Below, in pieces: positions 1-8,612 of a stretch of DNA of 8,612 nucleotides; positions within the stretch are counted from its first letter, which is position 1, and each line of letters opens with the position of its first letter. The position numbers were made by a program, and so were the translations under genes. Source of the DNA: a virus; IMG/VR virus record IMGVR_UViG_3300031418_000564, positions 1-8,612 of that record. One strand, 5' to 3'. Below the pieces are notes generated by a model. The model had not been told where the DNA came from and did no database searches. It saw nothing but the letters and a program-made list of their open reading frames with translations.

Positions 1-27
1 GGTTCGCATAATAACGTTATGCAAAAG
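1..27 (+). other. dif-like XerC/XerD recombination site A
   Basis: GGTTCGCATAA-TAACG-TTATGCAAAAG compared with E. coli dif GGTGCGCATAA-TGTATA-TTATGTTAAAT (recalled). The XerC arm matches 10/11 and the XerD arm 8/11. The spacer is only 5 nt. Confidence 0.6.
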
Positions 28-28
28 A

Positions 29-64
29 GCCGCCTGCGAGATTCTATTTTCGCAGGCGGCTTTT
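29..64 (+). terminator. Bidirectional rho-independent terminator (first copy)
   Basis: Perfect 11-bp GC-rich stem, 29-39 gccgcctgcga pairing with 50-60 tcgcaggcggc, with a 10-nt loop. TTTT follows at 61-64 and AAAAGA precedes at 23-28, which gives a T-run on the other strand. Confidence 0.75.
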
Positions 65-94
65 CTACATAACGTGTGGCACATTATGCGCACC
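62..94 (-). other. dif-like site B, inverted relative to site A, with a long spacer
   Basis: The minus strand reads GGTGCGCATAA-TGTGCCACACG-TTATGTAGAAA. The XerC arm is identical to E. coli dif (11/11). The first 3 nt of the spacer (TGT) equal the dif central region. The XerD-like arm matches 8/11 but sits 11 nt away. Confidence 0.6.
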
Positions 95-388
95 TAGATA
101 AGGATACGTGGAATCTGGGGTTTTGGCGCTGTCATTGTGCTGCTCGCGGATCTGCGGTTTTGCGATATGATTGTAATCGCAGTCCGTAAGTGATTATGCA
201 AAGCGGATTGTTATGCTGATGCCTCACCAGTTGAAACATAACAAAACGTCTGCGATGACACAGGCTGGATGAATTTTGTGGCAATGCGATGGCTCATAAC
301 CTTACTTGCCTCTTTCCACAGAAAGACTTCAGTTTCCTGAATTTGTTAGAGTTCAGGATCTCTTACGGCTGTATCAGTAGTCCAAATC

Positions 389-410
389 ATTGGTAAATCT
401 GTACCTCATA
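389..410 (+). repeat. 22-bp perfect direct repeat, copy 1 (attggtaaatctgtacctcata)
   Basis: Identical 22-mer at 492-513, 103 bp away, in ORF-free intergenic DNA. Confidence 0.9.
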
Positions 411-442
411 GCCTGATATCACGGCCTATCATCGACTATCGC

Positions 443-463
443 ACTCATTATAAATCAATGAGT
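443..463. promoter_or_regulatory. Inverted repeat ACTCATT-N7-AATGAGT, resembling the operator motif of the 6813-6901 region
   Basis: actcatt (443-449) and aatgagt (457-463) are reverse complements. They share the ACTCAT core with the four ACTCATG copies upstream of the regulator gene. The site lies between the two 22-bp repeats. Confidence 0.35.
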
Positions 464-491
464 TAATGCGGCTACTTGTCTACTTGAAGCA

Positions 492-513
492 ATTGGTAAA
501 TCTGTACCTCATA
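492..513 (+). repeat. 22-bp perfect direct repeat, copy 2
   Basis: Identical to 389-410. Confidence 0.9.
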
Positions 514-823
514 CCGTTTGAATCCTTTCTCTCGTAATTTATAACCTACTGTATTATTTGGTTTTATCTTCGCTGAAACGTTCTCTCGTCTTCGACCATT
601 AGATGCAGAAATCGCTGTAAGTCGAGTTAAAAGCAAAACCGCTTTGCAGTGGGCTGACGCAGTCCCGCATTCTATGACGATACGCCTCTTTTATCGGCGG
701 CCTGACGACTGAGTTATCTAAATGGACAATGTGCCGCCTCCCATGCCCTGATGGGCATAATCCGCAGCCAAGCCGGAGAAAAATGAAGGGATTTATCGCG
801 ATTATTAGAAGAGTAATAACAGC

Positions 824-865
824 GCCCTGAGAGTATCAGGCAGGGCTTACGCACCTACCTGATAC
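824..865 (-). other. Set of mutually exclusive stem-loops immediately downstream of gIV (candidate gIV terminator or packaging-signal region)
   Basis: Three alternative pairings: gccctg 824-829 with cagggc 841-846, cctga 826-830 with tcagg 836-840, and gtatcagg 833-840 with cctgatac 858-865. The position matches that of the Ff morphogenetic-signal hairpin just after gene IV. There is no clean T-run. Confidence 0.3.
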
Positions 866-868
866 CCT

Positions 869-2176
869 TCAGAGCTGCCGGATAACATGAGCGGTCAGCA
901 AAACGTACATAGTCCGATCACTACTGCTATCGGAATGGCTGCGGAAAAGCCAACCGATTAAAGGAATTTTACTGAGAAATGGCACGGAGCGATCGCTATC
1001 TGTCTTGTTTGAGTCAATAAGGCCACCGAGCAATAACGTCTGGCCATCCTTGATTTGAACCGTAGTCTGGATCTGACGTTGATTGGTAATGATATCGGAT
1101 GCACTTTCATTGTTACTGATGGAATCTGCTCGCGTATCGATGGAAAGTACTAACTGACCACCGGACATAACAACGGGTGTGACTTTAAGAGAAACGCCCA
1201 CATCGTGGCGCTCGATTGTCTGGAACGGGTTATTAACGTTGGCTGACTCACCGGTGACACGGCCAGTGATAAACGGCACGTTCTGTCCGACCGATATGTA
1301 CCCAGACTGACCAGACTGTGTGAGTATTTGTGGCGTTGAAATAACCCTCGCATGGCTGTCAGAACGGACTGCCTGTAGTGATAATGCAAGAATATTGCCG
1401 TCAAAAATGCCAAAAGCGCCTCCTGATGTAGACAGAGCTGAGCCTAAGGAAGAAGTATTAAAGCCCCCTGCTACCTTATGACCAGAAGCTGAACCAGCGG
1501 CAAATGAGAGATCCAGACCGTCTGCAAGAGTAGTATCAAACATAAGAGACTGGATCAGCACTTGGTCACGGGCCACATCGACAGAATGAATAAAATCACC
1601 CAACGCCGGCATTAAGACGTCAGGAGCAGAAACAATGATTGAGTTATTGCCTGGGTTATCAACTGCATTCCCGGTTCCATTCGCCTGAAGAAATACGGTT
1701 ACCAGTTGAAGAACATCAGTTGATCTAACGCTGCTCAGACGGAAACTGCGGACGGATAAAGCGATCGGTGCTGGTAATGCTTCTTGCGTGACAGTAGCCG
1801 AATAATCAGCGTCATCAGATGGTGATGATTCTTCATAATAAACAGGCTCTTGTGATGCGAGTCGTGATGTTGGAAGAGAAACAACGAAAGGATCGCCATT
1901 CATCAGGATAAAGCCATTTGCGTTAAGTACTGACTTAAAAAATGTATCAATATTGGCTTGGTTAACATCAGCATTAAAGACAGTAATAAACCCTTTAACG
2001 TTTGGATTAACAATAACTGCCCTGCCCGTTTTCTGTGAATACCACTGAACGAAAGAGCGTACTGGTGCATTATTTAAATTCAAAGGTTCAGCCAACACAT
2101 TGAATGTAAAAGCCAATAGAAAAGGAATGAATAAAAATCTTATGTATAAATATGATTTATTATTTAAAGTGTTCAT
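869..2176 (-). CDS. gIV: Secretin pIV (virion export channel), 435 aa
   Basis: Long stretches align with M13 pIV as recalled: SVGQNVPFITGRVTGESANVNNPFQTIER, DGQTLLLGGL and the secretin C-motif VPFLSKIPLIGWLF. I place the start at ATG 2176, 1 nt after the gI stop (TAAAATG). This gives the signal peptide MNTLNNKSYLYIRFLFIPFLLAFTFNVLA/EP. The 25 extra codons in the ORF track overlap gI and are unlikely to be translated. Confidence 0.95.
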   Translation of the reverse strand: MNTLNNKSYLYIRFLFIPFLLAFTFNVLAEPLNLNNAPVRSFVQWYSQKTGRAVIVNPNVKGFITVFNADVNQANIDTFFKSVLNANGFILMNGDPFVVSLPTSRLASQEPVYYEESSPSDDADYSATVTQEALPAPIALSVRSFRLSSVRSTDVLQLVTVFLQANGTGNAVDNPGNNSIIVSAPDVLMPALGDFIHSVDVARDQVLIQSLMFDTTLADGLDLSFAAGSASGHKVAGGFNTSSLGSALSTSGGAFGIFDGNILALSLQAVRSDSHARVISTPQILTQSGQSGYISVGQNVPFITGRVTGESANVNNPFQTIERHDVGVSLKVTPVVMSGGQLVLSIDTRADSISNNESASDIITNQRQIQTTVQIKDGQTLLLGGLIDSNKTDSDRSVPFLSKIPLIGWLFRSHSDSSSDRTMYVLLTAHVIRQL

Positions 2177-2177
2177 T

Positions 2178-2552
2178 TTAACCTTCACAAGTGATTTTCT
2201 GTATATATTTGTCTTTTCGGATAGTAACGTGACAGGCATCTTTAATATCAATGCTATAACCGTCTTTAATGAAATCGAAAGAATAATATTGCGTTCCTTT
2301 GATATCTTTGAATATTACAGAGACATCATAGCCCATTTGAGAAAATGAACTAATAGATAATCTAGGTAAAAAGACGGTCGCTTGGTCTGTTTTATTAAAA
2401 CTCTCATTTTTTAATGTTTCACTCAACGCATTAATTTCAAGATCATTCTTTCCAGACTTGTATAAAATACCCATAGCGGCACCCAATGCAAGGAATGAAG
2501 CCATTATCCAGATGCGATTCATACGTTTAAAGTATATCTTAGTTATACGCAT
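2178..2552 (-). CDS. gXI: Possible pXI, an in-frame internal-start product of gI (124 aa)
   Basis: Internal Met241 (ATG 2552-2550) starts MRITKIYFKRMNRIW. This aligns with the M13 pXI start MKLTKIYLKKFSRVL, just before the TM helix. The call is by analogy only. Confidence 0.45.
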   Translation of the reverse strand: MRITKIYFKRMNRIWIMASFLALGAAMGILYKSGKNDLEINALSETLKNESFNKTDQATVFLPRLSISSFSQMGYDVSVIFKDIKGTQYYSFDFIKDGYSIDIKDACHVTIRKDKYIQKITCEG

Positions 2553-3272
2553 ATAATATTTCATATCTCGTTCAATAGAAAATTGGCCATGTGTGAAAAA
2601 AGGCGGGATTAAACAAAATGTGCCCCGCTCATAATTAGCCGAAAAAACCTGTTTTGTATCATAAGCCGGATATAAATCTTTACCTGTGTACACCCATTTA
2701 TCTACAGTCAGCGCTTGGGGGTTATCACCATATTTCACAATGCCAAAGTGGACTTTAGGTAACGGAACGCGAGAGTTAGCAAAAAGAGAAACCAACCCGC
2801 CAATAATAGGAATGTTTAATTTATCCATTCGACGACAATAAACAACATGCTCAGCCAAAGCCTCCCTCGCCTGCTTATCCATAAGAGAAATATCCTGAAT
2901 AATAAAAATAATATCCCAGCCAAGTTTTCGAGCGTGTAAGCACCAGTCAATCACTGGCTGTCTGCTTTTATCACTCCAGCTACGAGAATTAAACCAAGTT
3001 CCACATTCATCGAGCACAAGCAAACCATTATCGGCTTCATTATAAGATAATGTCCCACGGCCGATAGATTCAAAATCATCTAGTGTTGGCTTATCGGGGA
3101 TCCTTATTACACGAGTTCTTTTCGCATAACGACCAACCCGCGGCATATGGTGTAATTTTAGATTTAAGTTAGTTGCAACTATTCTACCTCGGGCTAAATA
3201 ATCCTGAATACGGCCTATCGTAACGAGGGTTTTTCCTGAACCTAACTTACCTGTGACAACATGCACTGCCAT
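2178..3272 (-). CDS. gI: Assembly ATPase pI (Zot-like), 364 aa
   Basis: The N-terminus MAVHVVTGKLGSGKTL carries a Walker A motif. LLVLDECGTWFNSRSW, HARKLGWDIIFI and AEHVVYCRR are near-identical to M13 pI as recalled. There is one TM segment (WIMASFLALGAAMGILY). Confidence 0.95.
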   Translation of the reverse strand: MAVHVVTGKLGSGKTLVTIGRIQDYLARGRIVATNLNLKLHHMPRVGRYAKRTRVIRIPDKPTLDDFESIGRGTLSYNEADNGLLVLDECGTWFNSRSWSDKSRQPVIDWCLHARKLGWDIIFIIQDISLMDKQAREALAEHVVYCRRMDKLNIPIIGGLVSLFANSRVPLPKVHFGIVKYGDNPQALTVDKWVYTGKDLYPAYDTKQVFSANYERGTFCLIPPFFTHGQFSIERDMKYYMRITKIYFKRMNRIWIMASFLALGAAMGILYKSGKNDLEINALSETLKNESFNKTDQATVFLPRLSISSFSQMGYDVSVIFKDIKGTQYYSFDFIKDGYSIDIKDACHVTIRKDKYIQKITCEG

Positions 3273-3273
3273 A

Positions 3274-3615
3274 TTAAAGCACCTTATTAGCCATGCCTAA
3301 TAAGCGATCTTTTATATCAAAGACCAATACAGCAATACGCATAGACATAATAACGGTGACGCATTGTGTTGTACCATCAGGCAGAACAGATGACATTAAA
3401 TTACCGAAATCAGTTGGCATATATCCATATACAACTTCCGACAACCATTGTAAGCCAAGTAAAAGCACGCCCATAATAGCAGCAACAAGAGCCGCAGCAA
3501 TCAGGCCAGTTCGTGTGGCGAGCTTTGTTAATAAACTAGCGAAGTACCCAACGGCAAGCGGAATTAATCCAACTAGAAAGCGCAATAGCGCAGGAATACC
3601 AAGAAGGAACGGCAT
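3274..3615 (-). CDS. gVI: Minor capsid protein pVI, 113 aa
   Basis: [14 protein letters not shown] matches the M13 pVI start MPVLLGIPLLLRFL. The protein is hydrophobic and the size is right (112 aa in M13). Its ATG overlaps the gIII stop (TAATG). Confidence 0.9.
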
Positions 3616-4835
3616 TATTCATCACCTTTTCGAAGAAGAGAGGTAATCGAAGTAAATACATACCAAAATGTTAGGCAGTACATTACCCATGAAAGCATTG
3701 ACTTAATATCACTTAATTTATCGCAACCTATTTCAAGTTGATAAACGGTCCCGGAAAACATAATGAAGTCCGTACATCCCTTACCTGTTGGAATATTCGG
3801 ACGTAATGCCCCATTATTTAAAAATGCTTCCCAAGAAGCACCATGAGAGTCTTTGTCTATGCCAAGCTGGCTTTTAGCAAGAGAAGTAGCAAGGTCCATT
3901 TCAGAACGACCTTCACCATAACGGGCATTAGAATTATCAGGGTCGGCAAATTTTCCAGCTCCTCGAACGCCGTCATTTAGCGCCTTTTCAATCGAGGTTA
4001 AGTTAGCCTGAGTTTTCTCTTCTGCTGCTTTTTGATCTTTAGTAAAAGTATTTTCTTCCGTCAAAGAGTCTTTGATTTCAGAGGCTACAGTTGATGCCGC
4101 AGACTTAACGCCAGTCTGTACAGCGGCGGCTATATCATCTTTAGAAATGGATGAGCCAGAACTACCACCGGATGAACCTCCGCCTGATGAGCCAGAGTCG
4201 CCACCGGGACCACCGCCAGAAGAGTCATCGGATACGGGGCGCGATTGCGTCTCGCCAGAATCAGGCACATAGCCAGTAGGTTTCCAGCTAGCGGCACAAA
4301 CAGTCTTGTCGTTGCGGCAAACAATGACGCCAGTCGCTTCATACTCACAGCCATTATAATTAATATAACCGTCAGAGACGTTATTGAAGGTATTATCAAT
4401 AATTGGTTTGGCGGCACAGACCTCTTCTGGTGTTTTTTCTTCAGAGGGATCATTTTTATCAGGGATAGAACGATCTACCGAAAAAGTTATAGTCGCTGAT
4501 GTAGTATATATATCATCCTGTTTTCCAAGGTTATTTTTGATTGCACAATCATCTTGGAAAGCCAAACGCCACTGTGAGTCAGGCCATACGGATTTATAAG
4601 TAGGCAGGACGCTATCATAAATATTTTTTGCATTATCCTTTGCCGATGGGCAAAGCTGACTAAGCTTGGTCGGTGATATTTGCCAATAGGTAACAGTTTT
4701 ACCATTAACCATTTCTTGAAAAGAATCTGACGCATCAGATGCGCTGGCAGTCCCCGTATAAACGCTTTCCCATTTATCCGCAAAAGAAAAATGAGAAAGC
4801 ATAAATAATGCAGGAACGAATATTTTATATTTCAT
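3615..4835 (-). CDS. gIII: Adsorption/minor capsid protein pIII, 406 aa
   Basis: Signal peptide [19 protein letters not shown]. Cys-rich N-terminal region. One Gly/Ser linker (residues 203-229, nt 4149-4229). The C-terminal domain and anchor ...[17 protein letters not shown] resemble the IKe/Ff pIII C-terminus. The gene sits after gVIII and its terminator. Confidence 0.9.
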
Positions 4836-4852
4836 AATACCCCGAGCTGGGC

Positions 4853-4876
4853 AAAAAAAAGGGCGCGAAAGCGCCC
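4853..4876 (-). terminator. Rho-independent terminator downstream of gVIII
   Basis: The minus strand reads GGGCGC-TTTC-GCGCCC followed by TTTTTTTT (plus-strand A-run at 4853-4860). The Ff terminator after gene VIII occupies the same position. Confidence 0.85.
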
Positions 4877-4892
4877 TATTACTACAGTGTAA

Positions 4893-5141
4893 TTAGACTG
4901 CTTTAGAAGAAAACTTCTTAAACAAACGAATTGCCAGACCCGCACCTACAACAACAGTAACTACAGGCCACGTCTGCGCAATTAAATCCGTTGCCTGAGT
5001 TTTAAGGGAGTTCATGGCTTCTGTAGCATAATTGGTAGCCGTGTCTCCATCAGCGGCAAATGCGCCCGCAGAAACCAATAAAGATGCTGCACCCAGAGCA
5101 ATTTTATTTTTAGCATTTAAAATAGAAGAAAGAACACGCAT
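4893..5141 (-). CDS. gVIII: Major coat protein pVIII precursor, 82 aa (29-aa leader plus 53-aa mature)
   Basis: The mature part ADGDTATNYATEAMNSLKTQATDLIAQTWPVVTVVVGAGLAIRLFKKFSSKAV is very close to the IKe coat protein as I recall it (AEPNAATNYATEAMDSLKTQAIDLISQTWPVVTTVVVAGLVIRLFKKFSSKAV). It has an acidic N-terminus, a hydrophobic core and a basic C-terminus. Confidence 0.97.
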   Translation of the reverse strand: MRVLSSILNAKNKIALGAASLLVSAGAFAADGDTATNYATEAMNSLKTQATDLIAQTWPVVTVVVGAGLAIRLFKKFSSKAV

Positions 5142-5151
5142 TGTATTTACC

Positions 5152-5253
5152 TTATATCATACGTTCAGAAATTGACTTAAAGAAAGCAATTCCATAAAAA
5201 AGGGCAAAGCCCAAGAAATATGCCCCGAGGAATAAACCTACATAATTAATCAT
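5152..5253 (-). CDS. gIX: Minor capsid protein pIX analogue, 33 aa
   Basis: Not in the ORF track; hand-translated as MINYVGLFLGAYFLGFALFYGIAFFKSISERMI. It is a small hydrophobic protein. Its ATG overlaps the stop of the preceding small ORF (ATGA), as for gVII/gIX in Ff. It ends 8 nt (5142-5151) before the gVIII start. Confidence 0.6.
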   Translation of the reverse strand: MINYVGLFLGAYFLGFALFYGIAFFKSISERMI

Positions 5254-5339
5254 CGAAGCACTCCAGCAGTAACAGCACCAAGACCAAAAGATATAACAAG
5301 GCCAAGTGCTATTACGACATGAATTAATTCATCAGTCAT
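5250..5339 (-). CDS. gVII: Minor capsid protein pVII analogue, 29 aa
   Basis: Not in the ORF track; hand-translated as MTDELIHVVIALGLVISFGLGAVTAGVLR. It starts 4 nt after the gV stop. It is hydrophobic and ends like M13 pVII (...GIIAGGQR). Confidence 0.6.
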   Translation of the reverse strand: MTDELIHVVIALGLVISFGLGAVTAGVLR

Positions 5340-5343
5340 TAAC

Positions 5344-5613
5344 TTAGGCTTTAATTGATTCTAAAAGAATACGTCCAACTGAGAGATTTCCGTAGCGATT
5401 AACCTCAAAAGAACTAAGATGAAGTCGATATTTCCCTACACTATAAGGCGGTTGACCATCTTGAAGGTTTAGCTTGAACAACTGGGGATAAGCACCGCCA
5501 AGATAGGCATAAGCACTCTGTTCACGGATGGTATAGGGCTTCCCTGTGCGTTGCGATACGCCGGATCTCTCTTCGAAGTTGACCTGAGACTCATGAATTT
5601 CTATTGTGATCAT
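5344..5613 (-). CDS. gV: ssDNA-binding protein pV, 89 aa
   Basis: Aligns along its whole length with M13 gVp as recalled. Shared motifs: RSGVS, GKPY, EQ, YP, GQP.Y..G.Y..HLSSF.V...G.L. Confidence 0.95.
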   Translation of the reverse strand: MITIEIHESQVNFEERSGVSQRTGKPYTIREQSAYAYLGGAYPQLFKLNLQDGQPPYSVGKYRLHLSSFEVNRYGNLSVGRILLESIKA

Positions 5614-5626
5614 AATTATTACCTAA

Positions 5627-5926
5627 TTAAGCGACTTTTAAATGAGATGGTTTTATATACCATGTTGGGATAACGCAATCTTTTACCTTTATCTCTCTAA
5701 TATCTTTGACAATAACAGGTGAGAACTTAGAAACATTACAGCGCTGAGCAATGTCGATACCTATCTTCCGTAACCTAGCGCGATGCACCCTGACCTGATT
5801 TTTTGAAAGGTCAAAGTTATGGCCATGAAACCACTGAATCGCGTACATGGCTGTGGTATTGGCCGCACGAGTGGTTTCGACAATACTACGAGATAACAAA
5901 TGTTCGCTGATAGTTTCAAAGTCCAT
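5627..5926 (-). CDS. gX: Possible pX, an in-frame internal-start product of gII (99 aa)
   Basis: Internal Met273 (ATG 5926-5924) is preceded by GGTGA 5 nt upstream. The size and position match Ff pX (C-terminal ~110 aa of pII). The call is by analogy only. Confidence 0.4.
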   Translation of the reverse strand: MDFETISEHLLSRSIVETTRAANTTAMYAIQWFHGHNFDLSKNQVRVHRARLRKIGIDIAQRCNVSKFSPVIVKDIREIKVKDCVIPTWYIKPSHLKVA

Positions 5927-6742
5927 AGCATTCACCGATAGTTTTTCATCAAGCTCTAAAAAAGAATTATGTAATTCATTGAGTACTGAGTAATCTGAAA
6001 GGCCCCAAAATAATAGATTCTGTTTCTGCAAATATCGTGATTTTAGTTTTTGTTCAAAACGGACTATGCCATTTTCGCAGCAATGAGTAATGATGTTATT
6101 AACATAAATAAACTCTTTTGATTCTGTACCAAATTTGTTCTTTATTTTCTGCAATGAGTGAAGCTCAATTTCATTCGCTTTGTTATAAACCGTTGGATAA
6201 ATCAGACTTACATTGCCCTTTTTTGATAACCAGTCTACCGATTTACCGTTGCTGTGTAATCGTGGGACGCTATTCCTATAAGGCTGAGTTGATAACCCTG
6301 AGATATATTCATCTTCATTGCCCTTCCCTACGGACTTGTTCGAGGTTATATGCAATTCACGGATATAAGCACCATCAGATAACAACGTTGCTTTTTCGCC
6401 TTCCTTGGCTTGGCTGAAAAATATCTTTGTGCATTTTGTAAATTGTGGAAGCCCAAGTTCAGACAATATCTGATTAAAAACGGCGACACATGAATCTACG
6501 GTAGGAAGCCCAAAAAGATTGTCTAACCTTCCCCACTTTGAGGGATTACCTGACATTTTTAACGACGACCCACGGATCGAAATTGACACTACATCGCAAA
6601 AGGATCCTTTATGTTGAAATGTTGGCTGGGAGAGTGCACTCGCCTCTCCACTTTCAAGGTGAATACGTTGATAGGCAACATCGCTCAGTATGGGTAACTG
6701 ATAGCCAAAATCTTGTTCAATCGCCAACCAGTCAAAAAACAC
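5627..6742 (-). CDS. gII: Replication initiation (nicking-closing) protein pII, 371 aa, GTG start
   Basis: GIVRFEQKLKSRYLQ compares with M13 pII GLVRFEARIKTRYLK, and the C-terminus PTWYIKPSHLKVA with PDWYNEPVLKIA. The gene sits directly upstream of gV. An AAGGTG Shine-Dalgarno lies 8 nt before the GTG. The N-terminal third is more divergent. Confidence 0.85.
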   Translation of the reverse strand: MFFDWLAIEQDFGYQLPILSDVAYQRIHLESGEASALSQPTFQHKGSFCDVVSISIRGSSLKMSGNPSKWGRLDNLFGLPTVDSCVAVFNQILSELGLPQFTKCTKIFFSQAKEGEKATLLSDGAYIRELHITSNKSVGKGNEDEYISGLSTQPYRNSVPRLHSNGKSVDWLSKKGNVSLIYPTVYNKANEIELHSLQKIKNKFGTESKEFIYVNNIITHCCENGIVRFEQKLKSRYLQKQNLLFWGLSDYSVLNELHNSFLELDEKLSVNAMDFETISEHLLSRSIVETTRAANTTAMYAIQWFHGHNFDLSKNQVRVHRARLRKIGIDIAQRCNVSKFSPVIVKDIREIKVKDCVIPTWYIKPSHLKVA

Positions 6743-6762
6743 GTGAATGCACCTTACTTCAA

Positions 6763-6791
6763 ATCGTAGGTAAACCCTTCTCGCATGACAA
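6763..6791 (-). promoter_or_regulatory. Candidate sigma70 promoter for gII
   Basis: The minus strand reads TTGTCA (6791-6786), a 17-nt spacer, then TACGAT (6768-6763), just upstream of the gII Shine-Dalgarno and GTG. Confidence 0.4.
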
Positions 6792-6812
6792 AACCGTAAT
6801 ACATGACGAGGG

Positions 6813-6901
6813 TGAACTCATGAGCACATTAGCTCAACAGAAAAAATAATACACTCATGAACACATGAGTTCAAGAGGTTTGGCGTTAATGAACTCATGA
6901 G
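6813..6901. promoter_or_regulatory. Operator array in the divergent gII/regulator control region
   Basis: The identical 12-mer TGAACTCATGAG occurs at 6813-6824 and 6890-6901. A palindrome ACTCATG-AACA-CATGAGT lies at 6853-6870, and its right half extends to TGAACTCATG on the minus strand (6864-6873). This gives four ACTCATG copies in total. A -10-like TATACT lies at 6906-6911, and GGAG (6927-6930) lies 7 nt before ATG 6938. Confidence 0.55.
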
Positions 6902-6937
6902 GATGTATACTCTGGAAAAATATTCTGGAGTATCAAA

Positions 6938-7213
6938 ATGGCTAAACGTGCTACGTACAATGTCACCGAAGAGCGAAAATTGAAGCTTGAGCGGCTGGCT
7001 ATAGATGCAAGTGTCAAACTTGGGAAAACAGTAACGTGGACTGAATTGATGGGTCTGCTAATCGATGGCTATGCGAAAGACGCCGCTGATGACTTGATAG
7101 CTCAAGATTTAAGAGAGTTTGAGAAAGAGGTAATACTAGAAATGGAAGATGCTGAAATGGTCGGTGGTCGGGGGCCAGTAAGGGCTAAAAAAAATCAACC
7201 TAAAGTAAAATAG
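6938..7213 (+). CDS. Ribbon-helix-helix (CopG/Arc/MetJ-like) DNA-binding protein, 91 aa; putative phage repressor or regulator
   Basis: The N-terminus KRATYNVTEERKLKLERLAIDASVKLGKTVTWTELMGLLIDGYAKD fits a beta-strand/helix/G-x-T turn/helix pattern, comparable to CopG KKRLTITLSESVLENLEKMAREMGLSKSAMISVALENYKK (recalled). It has a good Shine-Dalgarno, is divergent from gII and lies next to repeated operators. Classical Ff/IKe phages have no counterpart. Confidence 0.6.
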   Translation: MAKRATYNVTEERKLKLERLAIDASVKLGKTVTWTELMGLLIDGYAKDAADDLIAQDLREFEKEVILEMEDAEMVGGRGPVRAKKNQPKVK

Positions 7214-7268
7214 TACGGGAAACCGTACTAAAGTTCGGGTGTCACAGAACCCCGAACCGCTTCGCGGT
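7211..7268. other. Cluster of three GC-rich stem-loops between the regulator and the cargo ORF
   Basis: Stem-loop 1: tagtacgg-gaaa-ccgtacta (7211-7230, 8-bp stem, GAAA loop, overlaps the TAG stop). Stem-loop 2: gttcggg-N11-cccgaac (7233-7257). Stem-loop 3: accgc-ttc-gcggt (7256-7268). None is followed by a T-run, so they are not classical terminators. Confidence 0.35.
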
Positions 7269-7341
7269 GCTAATGAATGGAAGTTGCGCTTCCTAAAATA
7301 AAAACCAGCTCAATAATGTTGCATTTTAAAAGAATTGGAAT

Positions 7342-8460
7342 TTGATAAAGATGAATGCACTCTTAGAGAAAATTGCAGGTGCAATAGCAACCTTTACAGT
7401 CGCTCTTATTTTGAATAAATTTTTTTCTACCTTTCGTGTAAGACAGCTTTATTTAGCATATGAAAACGCCCTTGAGTATACAACTCAAAGCAAATCTGGG
7501 CACACAGTGATGCTCACCATATCTAATAAAGGGAAAGAGAAAGAGAAAAATGTAAATGTGATAATACCTAGGAGTAAAAAAATATCAATTTTATCGTCAA
7601 GCTGTCCTGATATAGATTGTGATAATAATCAATTTAAGATTGAGAGAATTCTTTCAGGTGAATCCATCACGCTAGTTCTGTTGATTAAAGATGGTGAGAA
7701 AATATCAAAATCAAATTTACCAATAATTAAATCAGATGACGTGAATGGCAAGTGTTATAGCAGTGTAAAAAATATGCCACCAAGTCTTGGGCCTGCTATT
7801 TTTAGTTTGTCTTTGTTTTTTGCAGTTATCGCACTATTAGGTGTGAGTGCATATAAAGGATATGACCCATTTGAGGTTGCGTACTCTCAATACTATAAAT
7901 TGAGATTTAGTACATTTTATTCTCGTGGTTTCGATAATAATACATTTGATGAAAATTCCCTTATTAAACAATATGATACATCTAAAAACGAATTCCCAAT
8001 AGATCTTAAGAGTATCGAGATAATAAGTAATAATATTGAATATACATTTTTAGTAAATAATAGTACGAGTCAAAACATCAGTGTTGGCTTGAGTTTTACT
8101 GTCAAGAATAGCAGAGCATACTATGATGAGTTGGGCGAATCCCTTAATATAAGGGAAGATAAGGTGAGACGGGCTAAACTAACCGAGTTAAGGAAAAAAT
8201 ACAATATCCTAGAAAACGAATACGGATATACATATTCAGTTGATCAGTGGGTTGATAAAGGGCAGGCAAAAGAAATAAAAATAATTAGGCCGATTGTTAA
8301 AGGGCTAGATTACCAAAGCCTTGGGGTGAATATTAGAATGAGAAATGATTCTAATAACAAAGATTTCTATGGTGATTATACTTTCAAACCTGAACTCTCT
8401 GCTCTTGCAAAAAACAAATTAGATCCGATTCTCAGGTTTAACCAATATCCATTAAAATGA
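7342..8460 (+). CDS. Hypothetical membrane protein with two predicted TM helices, 372 aa (369 aa from ATG 7351); AT-rich accessory cargo gene
   Basis: Long uninterrupted ORF on the strand opposite all phage genes. It is visibly more AT-rich than the phage core. Hydrophobic helices lie at about residues 11-27 (IAGAIATFTVALILNKF) and 149-169 (LGPAIFSLSLFFAVIALLGVS). Each is followed by a strand-rich soluble segment. A charged helical stretch follows (EDKVRRAKLTELRKKYNILENE). I recognise no motif. The ORF track starts at TTG 7342, but ATG 7351 is the more likely start. A weak candidate promoter is TTCCTA-16-AATAAT (7290-7317). The bidirectional terminator lies 56 bp downstream. Confidence 0.75.
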   Translation: MIKMNALLEKIAGAIATFTVALILNKFFSTFRVRQLYLAYENALEYTTQSKSGHTVMLTISNKGKEKEKNVNVIIPRSKKISILSSSCPDIDCDNNQFKIERILSGESITLVLLIKDGEKISKSNLPIIKSDDVNGKCYSSVKNMPPSLGPAIFSLSLFFAVIALLGVSAYKGYDPFEVAYSQYYKLRFSTFYSRGFDNNTFDENSLIKQYDTSKNEFPIDLKSIEIISNNIEYTFLVNNSTSQNISVGLSFTVKNSRAYYDELGESLNIREDKVRRAKLTELRKKYNILENEYGYTYSVDQWVDKGQAKEIKIIRPIVKGLDYQSLGVNIRMRNDSNNKDFYGDYTFKPELSALAKNKLDPILRFNQYPLK

Positions 8461-8487
8461 AGCTATAAGTTACATGATATAAAAATT

Positions 8488-8514
8488 GGTTCGCATAATA
8501 ACGTTATGCAAAAG
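8488..8514 (+). other. dif-like site A, second copy
   Basis: Identical to 1-27. It lies 28 bp after the stop of the cargo ORF. Confidence 0.6.
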
Positions 8515-8515
8515 A

Positions 8516-8551
8516 GCCGCCTGCGAGATTCTATTTTCGCAGGCGGCTTTT
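8516..8551 (+). terminator. Bidirectional rho-independent terminator (second copy), positioned to terminate the cargo ORF
   Basis: Identical to 29-64: 11-bp GC stem plus TTTT. Confidence 0.75.
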
Positions 8552-8581
8552 CTACATAACGTGTGGCACATTATGCGCACC
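8549..8581 (-). other. dif-like site B, second copy
   Basis: Identical to 62-94. Confidence 0.6.
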
Positions 8582-8612
8582 TAGATAAGGATACGTGGAA
8601 TCTGGGGTTTTG

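Follow-up and report, generated by a model that had tools for sequence, protein, structure and literature searches.

How does a filamentous phage that encodes no integrase enter a bacterial chromosome? The question is raised by the first 94 nucleotides (nt) of a viral sequence, IMG/VR record IMGVR_UViG_3300031418_000564, positions 1 to 8,612 (the window, which is the whole 8,612-nt stretch analysed). There, two inverted sequences resembling dif, the chromosomal site at which the host's XerC and XerD recombinases (XerCD) act, surround a terminator-like stem. An earlier sequence-only reading had proposed that this region is a possible forked-hairpin phage attachment site (attP) in the style of CTXφ, carried by an IKe-type phage. 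We found that positions 1 to 94 are very probably an attachment site for XerCD-mediated integration at dif. More specifically, we estimate a probability of about 75% that they constitute the CTX-type attP(+) of a filamentous phage that lacks an integrase, has morphogenesis genes like those of IKe and carries an If1-like gene II. By analogy with CTXφ, the folded single-stranded DNA (ssDNA) is likely to be the integration substrate. No integrase domain was detected in the window proteins with Pfam or PHROGs, which agrees with the earlier statement that none is encoded.

Predicted structure of the probable attachment site

In Ff and IKe phages every core gene lies on the packaged (+) strand, and by this gene orientation the virion strand of the present phage should be the minus strand of the window. 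The parts of the site are listed below.

1 to 94, minus strand: putative attP hairpin region, defined by folds, family alignment and dif junctions
84 to 94, minus strand: XerC arm of site A, GGTGCGCATAA, identical to that of Escherichia coli dif; crossover within GGTGCGCATAATGT in contigs L030 and L031
73 to 83, minus strand: central region of site A, TGTGCCACACG, 11 nt, from the fold
62 to 72, minus strand: XerD-like arm of site A, TTATGTAGAAA, 8/11 matches to the dif arm TTATGTTAAAT
1 to 27, plus strand: site B, consisting of GGTTCGCATAA (1 to 11), the spacer TAACG (12 to 16) and TTATGCAAAAG (17 to 27), from sequence and fold
28 to 61, both strands: hairpin tip, a GC-rich 12-bp stem (28 to 39 with 50 to 61) and a 10-nt loop
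95 to 165, no strand assigned: phage flank beside the XerC arm, abutting the regenerated dif after integration
8488 to 8581, minus strand: second copy of the hairpin, inside the terminal repeat 8488 to 8612 and seen in the circularly permuted contig L032

Site A reads GGTGCGCATAA-TGTGCCACACG-TTATGTAGAAA on the minus strand, and site B reads GGTTCGCATAA-TAACG-TTATGCAAAAG on the plus strand. The sites are inverted, with spacers of 11 and 5 bp (9 to 11 and 5 to 6 bp across the family described below), and on the virion strand the complement of site B supplies the bottom strand of the duplex arms. As had been proposed, the outer stem is the XerC arm of dif, matching the E. coli arm at 11/11 positions, and the second stem is XerD-like, with 8/11 matches; the family consensus for this arm, TTATGTTGAAA, matches dif at 9/11. 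The TGT at 81 to 83 corresponds to the XerC side of the dif central region, TGTATA. The predicted unpaired bulge is TGCCAC (76 to 81), the first T of which (81) is the last base of TGT, while ACG (73 to 75) pairs with the partner strand. The XerC cleavage point would lie between positions 84 and 83 of the minus strand.

Folding both strands recovered all of the pairings listed in the sequence-only reading: 1 to 12 with 83 to 94, with a single T4/C91 mismatch; 14 to 21 with 68 to 75 (8/8 paired); and 29 to 39 with 50 to 60 (11/11 paired). The bulge opposite A13 had been placed correctly at 76 to 82 but was given as 7 nt, whereas a G·T wobble on the minus strand leaves only 6 unpaired nt in one strand and none in the opposite one. 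Read along the minus strand, the hairpin consists of the XerC arm, an asymmetric central region, the XerD arm, the terminator stem-loop and the partner arms. The XerC-arm duplex has one mismatch, at arm position 4, and is followed by two paired central bases, the 6-nt bulge on the 5' strand and then three pairs, after which the XerD arm is duplex across all 11 positions, with two G·T wobbles and one A/C mismatch. The proposed asymmetry of the center, with spacers of 11 nt versus 5 nt, was thus seen in both the sequence and the predicted fold. As ssDNA, the 94 nt folded with −31.7 kcal/mol on the minus strand (z −9.1) and −29.1 kcal/mol on the plus strand (z −8.2), compared with an average of about −11 kcal/mol for shuffled 94-mers, 0/200 of which folded as well. 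The hairpin is one continuous, unbranched structure with no fork.

Past the stem of the tip comes TTTT on the plus strand, 27 nt beyond the stop codon of open reading frame (ORF) ORF369, and TCTTTT on the minus strand. The tip thus resembles an intrinsic terminator that would act in both directions where two transcription units converge, a prediction made by direct inspection; the consensus scan for terminators handles loops of ≤8 nt and did not list this tip with its 10-nt loop.

Junctions with chromosomal dif

An exact-protein look-up with ORF369 retrieved three contigs of the same phage (L030, L031 and L032), with 99.95 to 100% identity. L030 is a 13.7-kb metagenome contig with chromosomal genes on either side of the phage. 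In both L030 and L031, the phage sequence from window position 95 onward adjoins a perfect 28-bp dif, GGTGCGCATAATGTATATTATGTTAAAT, with nothing in between, so that the minus strand reads ...ATCCTTATCTA GGTGCGCATAA TGTATA TTATGTTAAAT and then continues into the chromosome. At the opposite end, the complete hairpin is followed by non-phage DNA. Phage and dif have in common a 14-nt block, GGTGCGCATAATGT, which includes the XerC cleavage position, and the crossover therefore took place inside those 14 nt. At one junction the host XerC arm is linked to the phage central region and the remaining hairpin sequence; at the other, the phage XerC arm is linked to the central region and XerD arm of dif. 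This topology is the product expected of a XerC top-strand exchange with the folded virion strand, fixed by replication. Every fetched locus that contained both elements had the hairpin 5' and dif 3' on the same strand, approximately 2.5 to 10 kb apart. Integration at dif, suggested earlier as the obvious route, was thus found with the predicted junctions, and the flanking sequence, which could have placed the element elsewhere, put it at dif.

L032 is a circular permutation without host flanks, and L031 runs past the hairpin into phage-identical sequence; the contigs therefore show the phage in integrated form and also as a circle or tandem array. The window itself carries an exact 125-nt terminal repeat (1 to 125 = 8488 to 8612), given which its genome is circular or tandemly repeated, with a unit of 8487 bp, and the hairpin at 1 to 94 lies internal to the genome, not at a real end.

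The left flank of L030 had no blastn match in 5,426 E. coli genomes, and thus the host is not Escherichia; neither flank of L030 matched any of the other fetched loci. Directly past the integrated hairpin in L030 (10298 to 10365), approximately 70 nt of what is otherwise chromosome are about 90% identical to window positions 95 to 165. Judged by its similarity, this segment looks like phage sequence left behind by a previous integration on the XerC side of dif, and it gives direct repeats of about 80 nt around the prophage that could permit RecA-dependent precise excision.

Two other dif loci had unusual surroundings. In E. coli NU14 (L001, 21681 to 21758), the interval from dif and the hairpin to the hipA stop showed a weak in-register similarity to the window flank (AGAATC, TTGGCG and ATTGT-CTGCTC), and 11/2000 shuffles scored as high. 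The similarity of the same interval to the CUS-1 flank was not significant. As a hint from sequence, the E. coli dif-hipA interval may be an ancient phage remnant. In Erwinia sp. OLFS4 (L027, 6250 to 6277), a dif with the XerC arm GGTTCGCATAA, which has T at position 4 like site B, lies only 2.5 kb downstream of a hairpin; this could be a small satellite element, an element remnant or a variant of the host dif.

Conservation and covariation among relatives

Relatives were collected with a loose pattern whose only fixed elements were the top XerC arm, TTATG and a portion of the bottom arm, with no requirement for TGT. It matched 27 loci, 18 in IMG/VR contigs and 9 in species-representative genomes (Lelliottia, Phytobacter, Yersinia pestis, two Erwinia, Enterobacter, Rosenbergiella, Kluyvera and one contig labelled Nanosynbacter). 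The Nanosynbacter-labelled contig comes from a metagenome bin, has an E. coli/CUS-1-like flank and hairpin, and may be mis-binned; apart from it, all named hosts of the module are Enterobacterales, and the host of the present phage is presumably an enterobacterium. A second pattern, for site A only, matched 31 viral contigs, 13 of them beyond the first scan, and the inverted partner was present in 30/31. The sole contig without it (L045) is truncated in the loop, and one contig (L040) has perfect arms around an unrelated, longer tip. The outer stems, the loss of which would have spoken against an attachment site, were thus kept among relatives even where the tip differed.

TGT beside the XerC arm was invariant in 31/31 viral contigs and 9/9 genomes. 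Among 36 loci, arms and stems were almost invariant, while the 6-nt bulge occurred in 16 variants and the loop in 15. The two bases preceding the XerD arm were CG in 35/36 loci (CA in one) and never the TA of dif. The length of the top-strand spacer varied from 9 to 11 nt across the family, a variation that would be tolerated by a bulge but would not be by a duplex Xer site. This pattern appears to fit a protein-bound hairpin with a free bulge. It also fits, by analogy, a process in which homology on the XerC side supports strand exchange and the absence of homology on the XerD side blocks a second exchange; the same rules, with homology on the XerC side and none on the XerD side, have been reported for CTXφ.

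Alignment of the hairpins (alignment A2) gave a mean column identity of 91%. In the 18 unique hairpins, 94.3% of the cells were in standard pairs, compared with 28 to 51% in slid registers. The search for covariation that had been suggested earlier identified seven pairs in which both partners had changed; three belong to the central/XerD helix and four to the terminator. The observed pairing and covariation values were reached by 0/500 shuffles. One of the changes was a compensatory A-T/T-A change at position 7 of the XerD arm (alignment columns 29/72). The virion strand folded better than its complement in 17/18 unique hairpins, by about 2.5 kcal/mol on average, because its G·T wobbles become C·A mismatches on the complement. 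Duplex XerC and XerD arms with an asymmetric center were predicted in 18/18. Taken from the alignment, the compensatory changes and strand-specific wobbles point to selection on pairing.

The bulge (window 76 to 81, alignment A2 columns 15 to 20) is the fastest-evolving part of the module and the sole difference between several of the hairpins. Its hypervariability could stem from neutral drift, from ssDNA damage or from selection. The variable loop occupies window positions 40 to 49 (alignment A2 columns 46 to 55).

Relationship to known dif-integrating phages

The closest known counterparts are the attP sites of CUS-1φ (E. coli O18:K1:H7 and other extraintestinal pathogenic E. coli) and YpfΦ (Y. 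pestis), with 82 to 84% identity over 94 nt and up to about 120 nt. The CUS-1/Ypf sites and that of the window have the same length and layout (spacers of 11 and 5 nt, TGT, XerD arm and terminator tip), and the hairpins of Y. pestis (L023) and CUS-1 are identical. In total, 162 E. coli genomes had a place covering at least 80% of the 125-nt query, and among the matches listed the identity was 80.5 to 83.2% over query positions 1 to 118/122. The hairpins of the fetched loci were 73 to 85% identical to that of the window, which was the most divergent member found: it differs from its relatives in its terminator stem, with compensating changes, in having A at position 7 of the XerD arm, and in its bottom spacer, CGTTA. 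CUS-1 and Ypf form tandem prophages at dif with the same junctions as the window phage. In E. coli NU14, a tandem CUS-1 prophage adjoins hipA, with a full dif at the left junction and full hairpins at the internal and right junctions.

YpfΦ and CUS-1φ are listed in the CTX class (Das 2014, PMC4246890), and their attP sites carry features for direct integration of ssDNA (Das et al. 2011). An inverted pair of XerC/XerD sites was described in the encapsidated Ypf genome, and a CTX-like route was proposed (Derbise & Carniel 2014). CTX-type sites are characterized by inverted dif-like sites that fold on (+) ssDNA, by homology to dif on the XerC side only, and by central regions that make both sites unusable for Xer as duplexes (about 12 bp in one, 5 to 7 bp or incompatible in the other); integration proceeds from ssDNA, needs host XerC and XerD with catalysis by XerC alone, and is irreversible, and phage is produced by rolling-circle replication of tandem arrays (Das 2014, PMC4246890). 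The spacers of 11 and 5 bp in the window fit this description, and its 125-nt terminal repeat, the run of L031 into a second copy and the tandem CUS-1 array bear indirectly on the last points. The window site likewise has inverted sites, a predicted (+)-strand fold and XerC-side-only homology, and it integrates at dif with attP at one end and a regenerated dif at the other.

The predicted folds of the CTXφ and window sites have in common inverted dif-like sites, duplex XerC and XerD arms and an asymmetric internal loop of the same polarity. In CTXφ, where the 5' arm of attP(+) is AGTGCGTATTA-TGTGGCGCGGCA-TTATGTTGAGG, the long central region that starts with TGT on the 5' site of the (+) strand is 12 nt, compared with 11 nt in the window, and the short central region on the 3' site is 7 nt, compared with 5 nt. 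Both phages lack an integrase, integrate at dif with a regenerated dif, and form tandem arrays. However, the window hairpin is 94 nt, straight and closed by a terminator-like tip, whereas that of CTXφ is about 152 nt and forked: its 152-nt attP region folded with −41.5 kcal/mol in the same tool, and its insert of approximately 90 nt folds as a fork of two hairpins. Apart from the dif-derived arms, no sequence homology was detectable between the two sites, and their hosts and dif sequences differ. The mechanism of CTXφ has been tested experimentally, while the window phage is known here from its sequence. The sequence-only reading was thus right in calling the site CTX-style, given the dif junctions, the homology to CUS-1/Ypf and the conservation, and wrong in calling it forked.

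VGJφ and TLCφ are also integrase-less filamentous elements and exploit XerCD at dif, as the window phage probably does. The VGJφ site is one duplex of 29 bp whose central region measures 7 bp, and its integration is reversible, whereas the window has two inverted sites. In TLCφ, the XerD arm is degenerate, XerD acts first, and the XerC arm and central region are nearly identical to dif; in the window, the XerD-like arm matches dif at 8/11 positions, and only 3 nt of the central region match. Assignment of the attP to the VGJφ type or the TLCφ type was considered and rejected, as the site lacks the defining features of either.

Proposed mechanism and alternatives

We propose that in the packaged or rolling-circle (+) ssDNA, that is, the minus strand of the window, the two inverted dif-like sites would fold together. 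This would create a duplex XerC arm (GGTGCGCATAA), two paired central bases (T-A and G·T) and the 6-nt bulge on the 5' strand, followed by three pairs, a duplex XerD-like arm and the terminator stem-loop that closes the structure. Host XerC and XerD would bind this mimic of dif and synapse it with chromosomal dif, and XerC would cut and exchange the top strands where the XerC arm meets the central region, and the common TGT would let the exchanged ends pair. XerD would exchange no strands because the central bases on its side (CG here and TA in dif) are without homology. Replication would then turn the pseudo-Holliday junction into an integrated prophage with the duplex hairpin region at one end and the regenerated dif at the other. 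As double strands, with spacers of 11 and 5 bp, the sites would be unusable for Xer, and therefore new genomes would need another source, either rolling-circle replication over tandem copies or homologous recombination of the repeats that flank the prophage. The hairpin tip would double as a bidirectional transcription terminator. We infer Xer binding, catalysis by XerC only, the ssDNA substrate, resolution by replication and irreversibility.

Several points weigh against this proposal. The assignment of the virion strand relies on analogy with Ff and IKe, and for CUS-1/Ypf, Xer binding, XerC cleavage and the ssDNA substrate have been proposed, not demonstrated, in the literature consulted. 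The junction sequences would look alike whether the substrate was the hairpin or a duplex site A exchanged by XerC only, and so do not distinguish the two. In a fold with 394 nt of context, the minimum free energy structure retained the stems of the XerD arm and terminator, but the outer bottom arm paired with another segment, and thermodynamics alone is therefore no proof of the outer stem. The mismatch at XerC-arm position 4 (window 91 and 4; G/A on the minus strand) is conserved in most relatives, a feature that the proposal does not account for. The force of the covariation is limited by the few independent changes among close relatives, and the top XerC arm and some of the bottom arm were prescribed by the search patterns themselves.

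Two observations touch on these arms. At window positions 196 to 207 there is a partial extra copy of the bottom XerD-like arm (TTATGCAAAG, plus strand), conserved in L017, which competes for the outer arm of the hairpin in the long-context fold. In relatives that do pair at XerC-arm position 4, the outermost 2 to 3 nt of the arm are unpaired instead; the position-4 mismatch may weaken the duplex site B as a XerC site.

Four alternatives were weighed. In the one that survives best, although it is still unlikely, the same hairpin acts after extrusion as a cruciform from the supercoiled double-stranded replicative form, not as free ssDNA. Cruciform extrusion has been described for integron attC sites, the 94 bp form a near-perfect palindrome with a center of only 10 nt, and our computed results do not separate this route from that through ssDNA. 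However, it is the ssDNA route that is supported experimentally in CTXφ, and the virion strand was consistently the better folder, as expected if the ssDNA form is selected.

We consider it improbable that site A alone is a double-stranded attP of the VGJφ type (GGTGCGCATAA-11 bp-TTATGTAGAAA in the replicative form, with exchange by XerC only), its partner being due to the terminator or to chance. A XerC-only exchange on duplex DNA would likewise fit the junctions in L030, L031 and NU14, and the rule of TGT homology is valid in both modes. However, known duplex Xer sites have a spacer of 6 to 8 bp, whereas that of site A is 9 to 11 bp, variable in length and hypervariable in sequence. The VGJφ attP is 29 bp, and CTX attP1, with its 12-bp spacer, was reported to be non-functional as a duplex. 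Moreover, an incidental partner arm would not be expected in 30/31 contigs, including L040 with its different tip, or to show compensatory changes and strand-specific wobbles.

It is very unlikely that the hairpin is mainly a virion packaging signal or complementary-strand origin, with its likeness to dif secondary. Packaging signals of Ff and IKe are long imperfect hairpins of the (+) strand in the intergenic region, and the hairpin at 1 to 94 was the most stable of those folded in the genome. However, a separate 46-nt imperfect hairpin (about 827 to 872, minus strand) lies at the canonical site right after the gene IV stop, whereas the hairpin at 1 to 94 is approximately 775 nt from that stop; in addition, the crossover with dif maps inside the hairpin arm, and exact dif half-site arms are kept across phages with unrelated morphogenesis modules. 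The hairpin at 827 to 872 has an AGGGT...GGTG motif on its ascending limb and is a candidate packaging signal of the Ff/IKe type.

Finally, the idea that only the inner stem is functional, as a bidirectional terminator with incidental outer symmetry, has in its favor the GC-rich stem with T-runs on both strands between convergent units, but it is hardly credible, as the outer arms match dif half-sites exactly, persist in about 40 loci and are kept in L040 despite its different tip, and the junction data contradict it by placing the physical crossover with dif in these arms.

Gene content and mosaicism

The genes assigned with Pfam and PHROGs, and the accessory module beside the attP, are as follows.

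869 to 6742, minus strand: block of inovirus core genes
5627 to 6742, minus strand: gene II
5344 to 5613, minus strand: gene V
5152 to 5253, minus strand: gene VII/IX-like gene, 33 amino acids
4893 to 5141, minus strand: gene VIII
3615 to 4835, minus strand: gene III
3274 to 3615, minus strand: gene VI
2178 to 3272, minus strand: gene I
869 to 2251, minus strand: gene IV, secretin
6938 to 7213, plus strand: ORF91, part of the antisense accessory module adjoining the attP, with no function assigned by Pfam or PHROGs
7351 to 8460, plus strand: ORF369, part of the same module, PHROG 17621 (unknown function)

The label IKe-type, given in the sequence-only reading, is right for the morphogenesis module: the window pI was 73% identical to the pI of IKe, 72% to that of Erwinia PEar and 69% to that of I2-2. 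Gene II is If1-like (74% nucleotide identity) and did not match that of CUS/Ypf significantly. Nor is the remainder of the genome related to CUS-1/Ypf (pI 29% over 99 residues and pII 27% over 137); homologues of the small CUS-1 ORFs and of the CUS-1 helix-turn-helix regulator were not found in the window, and the two phages share only the hairpin, a short flank and ORF369. ORF369 was 61% identical to the ORF at the equivalent position in CUS-1 and has a hydrophobic N terminus, and Pfam gave no domain for it. Most hairpin-bearing loci are without ORF369, and it is thus dispensable for integration at dif; a scan of species-representative genomes found no relatives, because ORF369 is variable cargo. 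A role as a hidden recombinase was considered and rejected, as there was no domain match in Pfam or PHROGs and the gene is absent from most dif-integrated relatives.

The earlier description of classical IKe/I2-2/Ff phages as non-integrative needs the correction that dif-integrating IKe-like prophages, the UPΦ viruses, were described in 2020. These IKe/I2-2-like prophages lie in tandem at dif in several Enterobacterales, the match of their tandem repeats to dif is limited to its first ~15 nt, and their genes II and V are >85% identical to those of YpfΦ; the paper describes the dif copy and makes no mention of a hairpin or attP (Shapiro & Putonti 2020). UPΦ and the window phage both have a Lineavirus-like morphogenesis module, dif integration and antisense accessory ORFs beside the site, whereas gene II is Ypf-type in UPΦ and If1-like in the window. 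The window pI was 64 to 67% identical to that of most loci with a UPΦ-like gene set, and several loci had the UPΦ-like combination (IKe-type gene I and Ypf-type gene II) together with the same hairpin. The window phage combines an IKe-type gene I with an If1-type gene II, and the mosaic combinations among loci L001 to L048 also include a CUS-type gene I with an If1-type gene II, all with the same attP hairpin. The cargo sequence differs from phage to phage, starting right after the last arm base of the hairpin (its 3' edge). Judged from these comparisons, the attP module appears to be a common property of a mosaic phage pool.

A broader scenario is tentative and, taken as a whole, rather doubtful. 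In it, the attP and terminator would form a compact cassette that moves between unrelated enterobacterial inovirus backbones (IKe-like, CUS/Ypf-like and those with If1-like replication modules), with breakpoints at its edges, RecA-dependent excision based on remnants, and a bulge that tunes integration. Transfer of the cassette could proceed via hybrid rolling-circle products of mixed tandem arrays at dif, the phage sequence that each integration leaves beside dif (as in the ~80-nt repeats of L030) could give an otherwise irreversible CTX-type prophage a means of RecA-dependent precise excision, and the fast-evolving bulge could tune the efficiency or compatibility of integration.

Several other elements were noted in the non-coding parts of the genome, where an Rfam scan of the window found no credible family anywhere. 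In the 775-nt non-coding gap between gene IV and the hairpin, a 22-nt perfect direct repeat, ATTGGTAAATCTGTACCTCATA, occurs at 389 to 410 and 492 to 513 (103 nt apart) and is iteron- or operator-like. Between gene II and the divergent ORF91 (6813 to 6900), there are copies of TGAACTCATGAG, some of them inverted, in an arrangement like that of phage repressor operators. A 67-bp run at 7202 to 7268, in the If1 'major intergenic region', contains three to four small hairpins, had no Rfam match, and was 85 to 100% conserved in most loci with a gene II of the window/If1 type. It may be the cognate replication origin. The run may also explain many of the 424 E. coli plasmid places matched; six plasmid examples among the matches listed had 88% identity, and in one plasmid it adjoins a truncated ISNCY transposase.

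Implications

Part of this picture is already known: the CUS-1/Ypf attP belongs to the CTX class, IKe-like dif-integrating phages have been recognized since 2020, and the window hairpin is a somewhat divergent member of the family, so that the current mechanistic understanding is unchanged. What the present locus and its relatives indicate is that the CTXφ strategy, in which two inverted dif mimics fold together in an ssDNA genome so that host XerCD would insert the phage at dif, is not a Vibrio peculiarity but a cassette common to a mosaic pool of filamentous phages across the Enterobacterales, including those with IKe-type morphogenesis genes. The collected sites form a natural data set on what XerCD would need from a hairpin, with invariant arms, an invariant TGT and a free bulge (9 to 11 nt in total for the top-strand center), and one of its phages is represented in integrated form as well as in circular or tandem form. 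The hairpin would also explain why, at the tandem junctions of such prophages, the match to dif ends after the first ~15 nt, and it provides a simple pattern for locating prophage borders.

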